NCBI GenBank assembly: GCA_040754455.1
Contig: JBFMCP010000028.1
Location: forward strand, 1-43,242
Reading direction: 5' to 3'
DNA length: 43,242 nucleotides
Origin: Nitrospirota bacterium
GTDB lineage: Bacteria > Nitrospirota > Thermodesulfovibrionia > Thermodesulfovibrionales > Dissulfurispiraceae
The position numbers and the translations under genes are program-made. The notes beneath the pieces were generated by a model. The model was not told where the DNA came from. It made no database searches and saw only the letters and a list, made by a program, of their open reading frames with translations. Positions 131 to 39,548 of the stretch are shown here, one piece after another; position 1 is the first letter of the stretch, and every line of letters begins with the position of its first letter.

Positions 131-199
131 CTCAAAATTTAAAAATCAGAATGCAAAATTATGGATGCCGTAATTTTAATTTTGCTCATTTCACTTTTT
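131..199. repeat. Heptamer-repeat inverted hairpin element (TCAAAAT/ATTTTGC family)
   Basis: Left arm ctcaaaa-tttaaaa-atcagaa-tgcaaaa; right arm aatttta-attttgc-tcatttc-acttttt. Lies between tRNA-Thr and tuf. Confidence 0.7.
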
Positions 200-202
200 C
201 AG

Positions 203-275
203 AGCCCATGACCGGAATCGAACCGGTGACCTCTTCCTTACCAAGGAAGTGCTCTGCCGACTGAGCTACATGGGC
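203..275 (-). tRNA. tRNA-Thr(GGT), CCA not encoded
   Basis: Reverse complement GCCCATGTAGCTCAGTCGGCAGAGCACTTCCTTGGTAAGGAAGAGGTCACCGGTTCGATTCCGGTCATGGGCT forms a full cloverleaf. Confidence 0.97.
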
Positions 276-284
276 ACTCGCCAA

Positions 285-388
285 ACGCGCTGCAGCGTTT
301 ATCGCGTGCAGCGTTGAGCGTTTGCAGCGTTCATGGCGCTTTGAAATTCATCTCTCTCGATTGTTCGCTCTAACGCAGTACGCTGTAC
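285..388. repeat. Short-repeat inverted element (GCAGCGT/ACGCTG family)
   Basis: Reiterated gcagcgtt/gagcgtt/atcgcgt units on the left, cgctct/acgcag/acgctg units on the right. Same family as 1297-1379. Confidence 0.65.
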
Positions 389-397
389 AGTCTTAAA

Positions 398-469
398 AGC
401 GGGAAACGGGATTCGAACCCGCGACCCTCAGCTTGGAAGGCTGACGCTCTACCACTGAGCTACTCCCGC
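398..469 (-). tRNA. tRNA-Gly(TCC), CCA not encoded
   Basis: Anticodon arm TCAGC-CTTCCAA-GCTGA; T-loop GGTTCGAATCC; acceptor GCGGGAG/TTCCCGC. Confidence 0.97.
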
Positions 470-570
470 AGACGAACTACTATTATAAATAAAAAACAAG
501 TGTTTATGCCATACCTTTTTATGCCGGTCAATGGCACAACGCTCTTCTCAAACAAACCGCAGTTCTTGTA

Positions 571-655
571 TGGTGGAGAGGGGAGGATTCGAACCTCCGA
601 AGGCGGAGCCGGCAGATTTACAGTCTGCTCCCTTTGGCCACTCGGGAACCTCTCC
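571..655 (-). tRNA. tRNA-Tyr(GTA)
   Basis: Anticodon loop CTGTAAA, long variable arm, GGTTCGAATCC, encoded CCA. Confidence 0.97.
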
Positions 656-663
656 TAATTTAA

Positions 664-757
664 AGTCAGAAGTTGGAAGTAGGAAGCAAAAAGGATGGGG
701 GGCATTCGCAATCTCTCCCCTTGCAGTACAACTTCTTACTTTTCACTTCTTACTTGC
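664..757. repeat. Heptamer-repeat inverted hairpin element (GTNAGAA/CTTCTTA family)
   Basis: Left gtcagaa-gttggaa-gtaggaa-gcaaaaa; right cttctta-cttttca-cttctta-cttgc. Confidence 0.8.
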
Positions 758-36286: not shown

Positions 36287-36322
36287 TCTCTATCGCCGGG
36301 CTGAGAGAGCGGATGCCGGAGG

Positions 36323-36790
36323 CTATGCTCCGGCACCTATTGATTCAGCTCTGACTCTTTTCTGAAATTCATGCTCGGGCCAGAATCCTGTCTCGGCCAG
36401 TGCATTGATGATCTGCTTCCTGCTGATGATCCCGACGAGTTTGTTATGCTCGACAACGGGGAGTATCGTAAAGTTGAGGGAATACATGATCTCGACAATA
36501 TCTTCGATAGGGGTTTCGGGCATCACAGTCACCGGTTGTTCGCAAACACCGTGCTCTGCATGGCCGCAGCTCATAATCGACTCAGCAGTAATTTCATACA
36601 AGGTCCTTCCCTCCCTGACCACACTGAGCACATCGTATTCGGAGACGATACCGATTACTTCGAGGTTCTCATTCACTACCGGCAGAGCTGGATAGGGACA
36701 CATGAGCCGTTTCACGATATCCGTTCCCCTGTCTTTTGCGGGAATACTTAACCGTGGGTGCATGATATCTTTCGCTGCTATGCACGACAT
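36323..36790 (-). CDS. CBS-pair protein
   Basis: AKDIM, LPVV...IGIVSEYD, AESIM, LPVV...LVGIISR; AAGGAGG RBS. Confidence 0.92.
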   Translation of the reverse strand: MSCIAAKDIMHPRLSIPAKDRGTDIVKRLMCPYPALPVVNENLEVIGIVSEYDVLSVVREGRTLYEITAESIMSCGHAEHGVCEQPVTVMPETPIEDIVEIMYSLNFTILPVVEHNKLVGIISRKQIINALAETGFWPEHEFQKRVRAESIGAGA

Positions 36791-36825
36791 AATAGTGGAC
36801 CTCCTTTGCGTTGAAGGCGTATCGG

Positions 36826-37338
36826 TTATTGATGCGTATATTCGCCGGTCTTGGCCCGTTCGATGTCCGACGGCGAACGTTCGATATATCCATAGGAGCG
36901 CGCGCCGGTCGACGTAGGGACCACCGCCCTTTTCAGGTCATTCAGTTGATTGATCAGGCCGTGGTGCTTTGCCTCGTCGGCAATGAGGTAGGAGAGGAGA
37001 AAACGGGTAAAGAACAATTCGCTCTTTGCAAAAGCGGCATCCGCGAGGCAGAGGGATTCTGCTTCCGCTTCCATGTGCTTGTTGAACATATCCGAGAGTG
37101 CATTAAGTTCATCCGGACTGATATGCACCGCCTCTTTGGTGAGGCTATCGATGATCATCTGCTGGATGAGCTTGTGCTTTTCGGAATCGTGCTTGATCGA
37201 TTCCATGATCATTTTCACGAGTGAGTTGCCGGTTTTGTTCATCAACGAATCCGCACTTGCGATGGTTTTGTCCTCCAACGCCTTCCACTTCTCCATGAGC
37301 GCCAAAAATTCCTTGGAACTCTCTGCAGGCTCTTTCAT
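36826..37338 (-). CDS. Ferritin-like four-helix-bundle protein
   Basis: E...DSEKH and E...DEAKH di-metal pattern; AGGAGG RBS before ATG at 37338. Confidence 0.75.
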   Translation of the reverse strand: MKEPAESSKEFLALMEKWKALEDKTIASADSLMNKTGNSLVKMIMESIKHDSEKHKLIQQMIIDSLTKEAVHISPDELNALSDMFNKHMEAEAESLCLADAAFAKSELFFTRFLLSYLIADEAKHHGLINQLNDLKRAVVPTSTGARSYGYIERSPSDIERAKTGEYTHQ

Positions 37339-37475
37339 GTACGTTCCCCTCCTTTGTCGAGTAAATAATCCCCTTAATAAATTTATAGCAGAAAAAAGGG
37401 GGTATTGCAACCGGACAGTACAACAACAGAAGAGACGGAGTAATGGAACAGAGGAATAATGGATCGATAAATGTC

Positions 37476-39317
37476 TTAGAGGAGCTTCCTGATCACTTTT
37501 ACGATCGCGTCTTTAGAAATTTCCTCATAATCGAGAAGCTCTTCGGGTTTTCCGCTCCGCGGGATCTTCCTGACCGCGAGAGAGTAGAAGGGCACCGGGC
37601 AGCCGGCCAGGGCGCTCCTGACCGCCTCTCCTATGCCGCCCTCGGCAACATGATCCTCTACGATGACGATCGCTTCCGTGCTGTTCGCCGCTTCGGCAAG
37701 CGTTGCCGTATCGATAGGCTTGATGCAATAGAGATCAATAACGCGGATATACGTATTCTCCTTTTTGAGCTCCGCATATGCTCCGAGCGCCTCATGGAGC
37801 GTGATGCCGGCAGCAACCACCGTGACCCGGTCATGCCCGCTCTTCCTGACTACCTTGCAACCGCCTATCGGAAATTCCTCATGCGTGCCGTAGATGAGAG
37901 GGGTGTCTTTCCTTGTAGTGCGCAGGTATACAATGCCGTTGTGCCGTGCCGCCGTTTCCACCAGCTTCTCCGTTGCGACGGCATCCGACGGATAGAGCAC
38001 GACACTGCCCAGGACCGTCCTGAACATGGCGATATCCTCCAGCCCCATCTGCGAGGCGCCGTCCTCGCCGATGGATACCCCCGCGTGGGAGCCGACGAAC
38101 TTGATGTTTGCGTCAGAGTACCTGCTCATCCTGATCTGGTCAAAAGCGCGGGTAAGGAACGCCGCAAAGGTGGAAACAAAAGGAATCTTGCCGCGAAGGG
38201 AGAGGCCGAGCGCCGCGCCGACCATATTCTGCTCGGCAATATACATTTCGAAGAAACGCTCGGGATACACTTTCTTGAAGATCTCGGCAAAGGTGGAATT
38301 CCCCACTTCCGCATCCAGTACCGCCATACCAGGGAATTCAGGAAATATCCGCACCAGGGCGTTGCCGTAGGCCCTTCGTGTCGCTACCATCTTTTCAGGA
38401 GGGTACGAAATCGCCGCTGCCTTCCGGCGCTCTTGTGTTGCAGGTCTGAGGTCCTCAGGCGGCGTTATTGTCCCCCGAAGCGACCGATCAATCTCTCCCA
38501 GATCTCCGAGCGCCCGTGGGAGGTCTTCCTTCGTGAGCGCCTTCCCGTGCCAGTTGTCGCCGTCTTCGAGGAAGGAGACCCCTTTGCCCTTGATAGTCTT
38601 TGCAATGATCATGACCGGAGCATCTCCGGGCTGCTGTGCTTGCTCATAGGCGTCAAGAATCTCGGAAAGGGAATGTCCATCGATCAAAATCGTCCTCCAT
38701 CCGAAAGAGGCAATGCGCCGATCATAGGCATGCAGGTCATGGCCGTACATAGTCTCACCCCGCTGACCCAGTCGGTTCACATCGAGTATCCCGATGAGAT
38801 TGCCCAGGCGGTAATGGGCTGCGAGCTGAAGCGCTTCCCATTGAGAGCCCTCCGCCATTTCGCTGTCCCCCAGGAGTACATACGTGCGATACGGAAGTTT
38901 ATCGATATACTTCGCATTCAGCGCCATGCCGAAGCCGATCGAAAGCCCCTGTCCGAGTGAGCCGGTGGCTGCCCCGGCATAGGGGAATGCAGCAGTCGGA
39001 TGGCCCTCGAGACGGCTACCGAACTTTCTCAAGGTCATCAGTTCCTCTTCCGCCACTTTCCCGGCTGCGGTCCACAAAGCATATAAGAGAGGAGTAGCAT
39101 GTCCCTTCGAGAAGATAAGCCGGTCATTGTTGGGGTGATCCGGATGATCAGCGTCGAACCTGAGGATACCGCCGAAAAGAAGCGCTGTCATCAGGTCGGC
39201 AGCCGAAAGCGAAGAGGTAGGATGTCCGGAGCCCGCCTCGGCTGTCGCAGTAAGAATGTAAAAGCGGACCAATCGGGCAAGCTTCTCGAGATCGGCTATT
39301 TTCTTATTATCGTGCAT
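37476..39317 (-). CDS. tkt: Transketolase
   Basis: SGHPTSS, DRLIFSKGH, LEGHP, TGSLGQG, GDSE...N TPP motif, IAEQ, EDGASQ; the short (~610 aa) type. Confidence 0.95.
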   Translation of the reverse strand: MHDNKKIADLEKLARLVRFYILTATAEAGSGHPTSSLSAADLMTALLFGGILRFDADHPDHPNNDRLIFSKGHATPLLYALWTAAGKVAEEELMTLRKFGSRLEGHPTAAFPYAGAATGSLGQGLSIGFGMALNAKYIDKLPYRTYVLLGDSEMAEGSQWEALQLAAHYRLGNLIGILDVNRLGQRGETMYGHDLHAYDRRIASFGWRTILIDGHSLSEILDAYEQAQQPGDAPVMIIAKTIKGKGVSFLEDGDNWHGKALTKEDLPRALGDLGEIDRSLRGTITPPEDLRPATQERRKAAAISYPPEKMVATRRAYGNALVRIFPEFPGMAVLDAEVGNSTFAEIFKKVYPERFFEMYIAEQNMVGAALGLSLRGKIPFVSTFAAFLTRAFDQIRMSRYSDANIKFVGSHAGVSIGEDGASQMGLEDIAMFRTVLGSVVLYPSDAVATEKLVETAARHNGIVYLRTTRKDTPLIYGTHEEFPIGGCKVVRKSGHDRVTVVAAGITLHEALGAYAELKKENTYIRVIDLYCIKPIDTATLAEAANSTEAIVIVEDHVAEGGIGEAVRSALAGCPVPFYSLAVRKIPRSGKPEELLDYEEISKDAIVKVIRKLL

Positions 39318-39397
39318 TCTCAAGCTCCAGGATCCTATTATACCAGGACTCTGTAGCACAATCCGTATTGCAGGGCACCTCAAAAGTCTCCATATTC

Positions 39398-39426
39398 TTG
39401 ACGACCTTCAAAAGCATTGATAGACT
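39398..39426 (+). promoter_or_regulatory. Sigma70 promoter of the Zn-ADH gene
   Basis: TTGACG-N17-TAGACT with TG extension. Confidence 0.55.
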
Positions 39427-39458
39427 TTTAGTATACCCTGAGAGGAAGGATATATCTG

Positions 39459-39548
39459 AAATCCTAAGCACCAAACTCTAAGCAAACCCCAAATTCTAAG
39501 CAGAGATACATAGGTTTTGAATTTTTGATCGTGCGAATTCAGGATTTC
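39459..39548. repeat. Heptamer-repeat inverted hairpin element (AAATCCT family) in the ADH leader
   Basis: Left aaatcct-aagcacc-aaactct-aagcaaa..aaattct-aagc; right ggttttg-aattttt-gatcgtg-cgaattc-aggattt. Confidence 0.75.

Follow-up and report, generated by a model that had tools for sequence, protein, structure and literature searches.

Short arrays of tandem heptamers, the short tandemly repeated repetitive (STRR) sequences, occur in cyanobacteria. In systems of repetitive extragenic palindromic (REP) doublets forming hairpins (REPINs), the gene for the REP-associated tyrosine transposase (RAYT) is framed by the same repeats as its REPINs. We analyzed a 43,242-nt contig of a Nitrospirota bacterium (GCA_040754455.1, contig JBFMCP010000028.1; hereafter the window), in which 14 short elements, most of them tandem heptamer units followed by reverse-complement units, had been predicted. 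The window is contig C28 of genome G000, a 3.27-Mb assembly in 92 contigs. Several described systems resemble these elements. The class 3 sites of Geobacter metallireducens are eight inverted pairs of five tandem MTYCTGA heptamers, and the cited passages also describe heptamer elements within genes and, in the corresponding proBA spacer of G. sulfurreducens, another repeat (Aklujkar et al. 2009, PMC2700814). The intervening sequence (IVS) of the Coxiella burnetii 23S rRNA contains an S23p/PF05635 gene within terminal inverted repeats; the tandem heptamers of its 5' arm vary in number between strains, and the open reading frame (ORF) decays by deletion, according to the passages cited (Warrier et al. 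2016, PMC4990558). REPINs are described as short inverted repeat pairs with a spacer, present in many copies (PMC3116915, PMC2817692). For bacterial MITEs (miniature inverted-repeat transposable elements), including the Rickettsia palindromic element (RPE), in-frame insertion in conserved proteins and signal-peptide fusions are reported in the passages cited (Delihas 2007, PMC2229807). The TAACTGA repeats of Beggiatoaceae are described as direct repeats, a single case among 170 being inverted (MacGregor 2015, PMC4679880). Avd of diversity-generating retroelements (DGRs) is described in part of a preprint as a pentameric, positively charged protein that binds an RNA element (10.1101/2023.10.23.563531).

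All 14 predicted elements are present at their coordinates, and they are part of a set of about 290 elements with at least 12 arm families in G000. Seven families occur within the window, where at least six had been proposed. A scan for period-7 repeats combined with inverted complementarity, which the original prediction had suggested, gave a signal well above chance: 444 period-7 tracts were found in G000 versus 78–145 for periods 4, 5, 8, 10, 11, and 13, and periods that are multiples of three gave 297–394 tracts, from coding sequence. Among tract pairs less than 100 bp apart, 74 were inverted, 3 were direct, and 4 were reversed without complement. The arm families were defined from the list of paired period-7 tracts, and models were then trained on left-right matches. 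These models detected 287 left-right and 0 right-left pairs at ≥36 bits, and 305 and 7 pairs, respectively, at 32 bits, right-left matches lying under a stronger left-right match having been dropped. Simple pattern scans gave 132 left-right and 2 right-left pairs, and the pattern for family K gave 11 and 0, respectively. The fixed and variable positions within the repeat units are sharply defined in the trained models.

Family A accounts for 51 of the pairs. The class 3 sequences in the Geobacter supplement match family A with the same polarity (compared by eye, for family A only, with the window pair at 7695–7784 and the 50 other pairs); therefore, the empty paired architecture is already in print. 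The two cases differ in number, with eight pairs in G. metallireducens versus 51 family A pairs and at least 12 families in G000, and in interpretation, since the class 3 sites were read as regulator sites and the passages cited contain no link to a four-helix-bundle protein. The elements also resemble the STRR and TAACTGA repeats, which likewise form short arrays of heptamers close to the ends of genes and occasionally within ORFs; however, the latter are direct repeats in the descriptions cited, whereas inverted pairs dominate here and many families coexist.

The positions of 282 modelled elements (≥34 bits; models K8, K9, and M6, which drifted in training, were excluded) were classified using our own approximate gene calls, on which all ORF placements also rest. 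The elements were found between co-directional genes in 214 cases, convergent genes in 32, and divergent genes in 19, with 10 in ORFs and 7 at contig edges. In 154 of the 214 co-directional cases the upstream stop codon lies within 15 nt of the element start. When the element is subtracted, the median length of the remaining spacer is 24 nt, whereas 298 nt would be expected if insertion were governed by target size. The internal spacers of tRNA clusters are often occupied, and a modelled element lies at the 3' end of 8 of the 49 tRNA/tmRNA genes. Moreover, 59 arms are well within called ORFs, many of them at positions corresponding to conserved-protein loops, and some right arms code for hydrophobic stretches at the N-terminus that resemble signal peptides. 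The first 12 kb of the window, where a concentration in housekeeping genes had been noted, is the densest 12-kb stretch of the genome (7 modelled elements versus a mean of about 1.1; 1 of 435 overlapping 12-kb segments reaches 7). Third-position GC content (GC3) of flanking genes barely differs from that of other genes (p 0.06), so a genome-wide housekeeping bias is not established beyond the tRNA clusters and the contig densities.

Arms of these types also enclose a gene. G000 possesses one strong TIGR02436/PF05635 gene (contig C2, 182194–182611), which lies inside inverted family D arms (TCAGC type) and is the only case in G000 of a PF05635 ORF enclosed as in the rRNA IVSs. The 41 genomes of the order contain 62 PF05635/TIGR02436 matches, distributed over 25 genomes. 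We examined 50 fetched order-level genes together with the G000 protein's 80 closest relatives in GTDB, using 120 random small G000 genes and the same de novo arm detector as the control. Inverted arms with periods of 6 to 9 enclose 102 of the 130 genes (38/50 and 64/80, respectively) versus 0 of the 120 control genes. Both D arms are present in 54 of the 80 closest relatives, and a reversed or compound D layout was observed in six more (L161, L164, L185, L202, L204, and L206). The record titles of the D-armed relatives name Chloroflexota, Acidobacteriota, Planctomycetota, Cyanobacteriota, Bacteroidetes, Nitrospirota, Bathyarchaeia, and others. A FastTree tree was built from the order-level proteins of at least 80 residues and the first 14 of the 80 closest relatives. 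It groups the D-armed genes in one clade (support 1.00), to which the only three D-armed genes among the 50 order-level genes belong, and a second clade consists of four genes whose arms are GGTTAA hexamers. Arm type follows the protein clade across phyla, not host taxonomy. The three genomes richest in D arrays (106, 56, and 36) are the three with a D-clade gene; two of them share one genus.

Filled and empty states were also found at single sites. At a site that we take to be hisA-hisF, the cassette is present in G001 and G022 and G000 is bare. At the site that we likewise call flgH-flgI, the cassette is filled in G007 and G000 has a degenerate gene-less family A pair; the right arm forms the hydrophobic N-terminus of the next gene in both genomes. 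The G005 cassette is reduced to 37 codons between its arms, and several PF05635 matches contain stops. The predicted link to four-helix-bundle and GxxExxY cassettes held for the former, whose arms are the same as those of the gene-less elements. In regards to GxxExxY genes, six matches were found in 5 of the 41 genomes and none in G000, and five of the six have inverted 9–10-mer arms (by eye) unlike the window families.

The spacers were compared with those of a same-genus genome (G001) and of other relatives, which bear G numbers likewise. At the 13 comparable window sites, G001 contains the same family at four (285, 1297, 1465, and 6983), a different family at four (665, 1139, 1633, and 7695), and no element at four (10842, 11927, 36012, and 39459), and one is unclear. 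The lepA-lepB spacer is ≤60 nt in 17 of the 29 genomes with adjacent genes, and five genomes have clear repeat pairs there, from at least four families (by eye). The lepB-ribE spacer is ≤32 nt in 15 of 30 genomes, and the tRNA spacers among those listed show the same mix of empty, same-family, and other-family sites. The abundance of the families changes as well: family A triplets number 92 in G000 and 10 in its sister genome, and the family D counts are 36 and 106, respectively. These empty sites, family swaps, and lineage-specific bursts agree with the original prediction of a non-autonomous mobile class. A near-identical strain contig (8,926 nt) differs from the window by 79 substitutions and 23 gap letters, and the two indels listed (+9 at 6991 and +14 at 7749) are both whole repeat units within elements. 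The strain contigs of runs X5 and X6 have one extra 9-nt unit in the 6983 element, and that of run X5 has two extra units in the 7695 element. The unit number changes between strains by slippage.

The pairing of the arms was then considered as a common feature, since an RNA-processing element class had been proposed. The right arm matches its own left arm, but only at the family level, and it pairs with it no better than with the arms of other family members: the pairing energies of own and other arms were −31.4 and −32.1 kcal/mol for family A, −16.6 and −16.7 for family F, and −13.6 and −13.4 for family C. The own right arm was the best partner in 10 of 274 elements (8 families), and only family D gave p 0.016, uncorrected, in an arm covariation test. 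In a power simulation, true partners with 15–25% changes were best in 12–28 of 30 cases, which indicates that the test has power. Fold z-scores were calculated against dinucleotide shuffles on the strand taken as transcribed, an arbitrary choice at two divergent sites. Five of the 14 window elements gave z ≤ −2, the other nine folded no better than shuffles, and in 10 of 14 the opposite strand gives the more stable fold; pairing is therefore weaker than the original prediction had implied. Over the whole genome, the sense strand has a slight advantage (it folds better in 124 elements versus 88, out of 214; mean −1.1 kcal/mol, p 0.018). Since own arms pair no better than others' and covariation is absent beyond the family, the question shifts from RNA stems to sequence recognition, with which these results fit; they point to recognition of the unit sequence, more than a selected helix, as what shapes the arms, and do not support an RNA stem as the feature selected in common.

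We propose that the elements, which are gained, lost, and swapped among relatives, are gene-less, non-autonomous derivatives of the same-armed PF05635 cassette, a reading whose chances we put at about even. It is likely that they descend from a cassette whose four-helix-bundle protein is predicted to recognize its own repeat type. Each protein clade would recognize, by sequence, 4–5 repeat units of its own arm type, probably as a pentamer and perhaps with one unit per subunit. By model scoring, 258 of 576 arms have 5 units (the peak) and 175 have 4, and both solved homologues have five chains. While the matching gene resides in a lineage, arm pairs of its type would be copied to new places, probably by host enzymes acting on transcribed or single-stranded nucleic acid. 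Selection would retain harmless insertions, such as those in short operon or tRNA spacers behind a stop codon, in protein loops, in signal-peptide regions, or in the loops of older elements. Insertion into an older element's loop followed by deletion would yield the family swaps, and slippage would alter the unit number afterwards.

The elements work like a REPIN or MITE system whose framed gene is an intervening-sequence protein, and derivatives of this kind are the best reading, with a mode of movement that we infer. On the features tested, they do not belong to the REPINs, the classical MITEs, or the rRNA IVSs. Like REPINs, they consist of two inverted repeats around a spacer and are present or absent between relatives; however, the framed gene is not a transposase, and the one PF01797 match in G000 has no heptamer arms seen beside it. 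Like MITEs, they are short, non-coding, and numerous, with terminal inverted repeats, but they share their ends with PF05635 cassettes and not with a Y1 transposase, the transposase family to which the search was confined. Unlike in either system, the arms are tandem arrays and the copies are unusually unlike each other. In contrast to the rRNA IVSs, the window elements are gene-less, lie in tRNA or mRNA spacers or in an ORF and not in rRNA, and mostly form weaker stems. The Avd protein has a homologous fold (weak bAvd match), but the armed cassette has no linked reverse transcriptase, and the DGR-like avd of G000 has no such arms in its read flanks. This avd-like gene lies between two similar repeats beside a reverse transcriptase (C2, 111.6–113.4 kb; L002 and L133). 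A literature search, which left subscription journals mostly outside and bioRxiv supplements likewise, found nothing beyond Coxiella that joins PF05635 genes to dispersed repeat pairs.

Several observations weigh against this derivation. Binding and movement are predictions, made for a protein with no known catalytic role. G000 contains one armed gene, of family D, versus at least 12 arm families, so that at least 11 lack a cognate gene here, and no A-armed gene is among those fetched from the three genomes with the highest family A counts (92, 52, and 47). The association of clade and arm type can in part be due to linkage, the kin are not independent, and the D right arm often overlaps the last codons of the gene. 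No four-helix-bundle remnant was detected in the element loops (best 1.1 bits versus 0.8–2.5 in shuffles), and neither a four-helix-bundle match nor a filled cassette occurs in the 100 loci fetched around the window's own sites. The read flanks of the one reverse transcriptase and the one Y1 transposase (PF01797) match of G000 have no such arms. No near-identical copies are among the all-against-all matches listed (best about 90%), which is odd for copy-and-paste. There is no terminal TA and no clear target-site duplication: for 282 elements, whose ends are fuzzy, the longest shared flank word was 3.76 versus 3.61 in mismatched pairs, and words of at least 5 nt were found in 21.6% versus 15.4%. 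Finally, strict patterns gave mostly 2–4 units, and the count of 5 depends on the scoring.

Alternatively, the elements could be mRNA and pre-tRNA versions of rRNA IVSs, whose RNase III-cut arms serve transcript processing or stability and whose slot any pairing family can fill. The Coxiella IVS has heptamers in a stem cut by RNase III, according to the passages cited (PMC4990558). In G000, a single RNase III gene is present, helix 6 of the 16S rRNA contains a family D arm, and most of the elements are found in spacers inside tRNA clusters and runs of co-directional genes; the slightly better sense-strand folding given above is in the same direction. On the other hand, the arms show no covariation beyond the family, nine of the window's 14 elements have no folding advantage over shuffles on the strand taken as transcribed, many relatives lack an element in the same spacers, and housekeeping genes contain elements and lone arms within their reading frames, where a cut would come at a cost. 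We consider this explanation unlikely. Some RNase III cutting of the best stems (1633 and 7695) would be compatible with cassette derivation as a side effect.

Each element could also be the scar of a whole cassette that lost its gene on site, empty pairs never moving alone; the original prediction had likewise suggested emptied cassettes. The partly deleted G005 cassette, the matches with stops, the reported decay of the Coxiella ORF by deletion (PMC4990558, in the passages cited), and the site filled in G007 and degenerate and gene-less in G000 are of this kind. However, the explanation requires hundreds of independent deletions with no gene remnant in any loop, the families have common inner sequences unlike the cassette interior, and in-frame copies in conserved proteins could hardly have passed through a gene-bearing state. 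Scars as the general origin are therefore quite improbable.

A reading of the arms as paired binding sites of host global regulators or nucleoid proteins has been proposed for the same family A repeats in G. metallireducens (PMC2700814, in the passages cited), and it is the arm sequence and not the pairing that is conserved. The setting argues against it, with few elements between divergent genes (19/282) and most co-directional ones beginning no more than 15 nt from a stop codon (154/214). In addition, even within a single genus families are exchanged or lost at a given site, and arm type tracks the four-helix-bundle clade and not host taxonomy. We regard this reading as very improbable.

Ordinary terminators, or products of local slippage or template switching in AT-rich spacers, are hardly credible and largely refuted: several families do have A-rich left and T-rich right arms, and the unit number does shift by slippage between strains, but none of the 14 terminator-like matches in 1–14000 overlaps any of the 11 elements there, the elements sit inside operons and ORFs, own arms do not match better than others' as template switching predicts, and unrelated loci, as well as distant phyla, share the same discrete families.

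The individual window elements are as follows. Eleven of the 14 fit heptamer models; those at 285, 1297, and 6983 belong to family K, a mixed 7/8/9-mer, GCG-rich type. The period-7 z is ≥2.6 in 10 of 14. The family C pair (left-arm unit approximately YAAARWK) at 133–198 (45 bits, 4+3 units, period-7 z 3.5, fold z 0.1) lies 3' of tRNA-Thr(GGT), before a GTP-binding gene cut by the contig start, which we read as tuf from its N-terminus. The family K element (GCAGCG/GCGTTTAT type) at 285–392, between tRNA-Gly and tRNA-Thr, was missed by the heptamer models (period-7 z 2.6), and family K is also found at the G001 site. Between tRNA-Thr(TGT) and tRNA-Tyr lies a family B pair (GTRRGAA; 665–753, 59 bits, fold z −2.2), replaced by family K in G001, a hexamer family in G006, and a 9-nt spacer in G019. 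The family E pair (GYTCAYN) at 1139–1206, between tRNA-Pro and tRNA-Arg(TCT) (60 bits, fold z −2.8), corresponds to family H in G001, G005, and G017 and to a 0–5 nt spacer in G006, G016, G019, and G022. The family K element at 1297–1382, between tRNA-Arg(TCT) and tRNA-His (fold z −1.9, period-7 z 2.0), corresponds by eye to family K in G001, G005, and G019 and to other families in G002, G013, G022, and G029. Two family F pairs follow. That at 1465–1536 (AAAYYCY; 66 bits, 5+5 units), between tRNA-His and tRNA-Arg(CCG), is also family F in G001, with a family-A-like piece nested inside, and is a 12-nt spacer in G019; that at 1633–1729 (34 bits, fold z −8.0), between tRNA-Arg(CCG) and the ribBA end, has a long perfect inner stem and is family H in G001.

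In the lepB-ribE spacer, the degenerate family K element at 6983–7052 is weak (period-7 z 0.8, no signal; fold z −0.3), and an intact family K pair is present in G001. The family A pair (CAGRAKY) at 7695–7784 in the lepA-lepB spacer (88 bits, 5+5 units, fold z −6.6) is replaced by family K in G001, family F in G005, and hexamers in G006 and G029. A family C pair at 10842–10901 (44 bits, fold z −5.3) lies between a divergent ROK kinase gene and polA, and none was seen at the G001 site. The family H pair (GTRAYSR) at 11927–12010 on the forward strand (57 bits) is read in frame as part of the N-terminal linker that the second polA ORF (11890–13722) encodes, the frame being open from a conserved MKQxSLF start; the G001 linker has no such repeat. 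The original statement that the elements carry no ORF holds in so far as the loops contain no gene remnant, but this element is itself within an ORF. The remaining elements are a family F pair at 24152–24227 directly before a GNAT acetyltransferase gene (39 bits, fold z 0.0; G001 site not comparable), a family C pair at 36012–36083 beginning at the nth stop codon (33 bits; none seen after nth in G001), and a family F element at 39459–39547 between divergent transketolase and alcohol dehydrogenase genes (37 bits; none seen before adh in G001). A lone T-rich array of CTCTGTG units follows at 39548–39575 and resembles right arms made of 9-mers that accompany the GxxExxY genes of G029 and G030.

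The window contains two tRNA clusters, ribBA, ribE, lepB, lepA, the ROK kinase gene, a split polA, nth, transketolase, and other genes; Rfam at the gathering threshold gave eight tRNAs and nothing else in the window. A CHASE2 adenylate/guanylate cyclase gene (3153–5165) and a class II cAMP phosphodiesterase-like gene (5579–6346) lie between ribE and ribBA on the opposite strand. The polA gene is divided into a 5'-3' exonuclease gene (10970–11893) and the 3'-5' exonuclease/polymerase gene at 11890–13722, the start of which resembles a sliding-clamp-binding motif. The exonuclease frame is about 305–348 aa in all listed genomes of the host family versus about 850–1120 in other families, and the second half is non-adjacent in several genomes of the host family. 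The 11927 element was ruled out as the cause of the split, the exonuclease frame being similar with or without it in the listed genomes of the family.

Elsewhere in G000 (C15, 21852–21886; C20; C4; C22) and at loci L069 and L081, T-rich right arms are read as the hydrophobic N-terminus of the next gene, and at one site two different families supply the apparent signal peptide in two genomes. Arms of two families lie side by side at C5:7876–7960, C36:24937–25075, and C33:25162–25218, some in frame in proteins. A family C pair lies 3' of the RNase III gene itself (C5, L134). At the ends of contigs C3 and C8, both 16S gene starts break off after a family D left arm that lies around helix 6, possibly part of an IVS of the type of the resident cassette.

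Heptamer repeats, like the PF05635 protein, are abundant and lack an explanation, and the derivation proposed here would give the long-unexplained bacterial repeats a source. The elements rewrite protein loops and N-termini and therefore matter for annotation and protein evolution. The 119-residue G000 protein and the TCAGC arms of its clade form a testable cognate pair, with the eleven other families as specificity controls. A more far-reaching and doubtful version is a selfish system found in bacteria and archaea alike. An Avd-like pentamer, for which no catalytic activity is known, would read its own repeat, one unit per subunit, and drive host enzymes that write new arm pairs, each of them unique, into DNA that is transcribed, also in frame into proteins and signal peptides. 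If true, this would be a class of mobile elements without a transposase of their own and a common source of STRR-like heptamers, the paired sites of Geobacter, and ORF-bearing rRNA intervening sequences.

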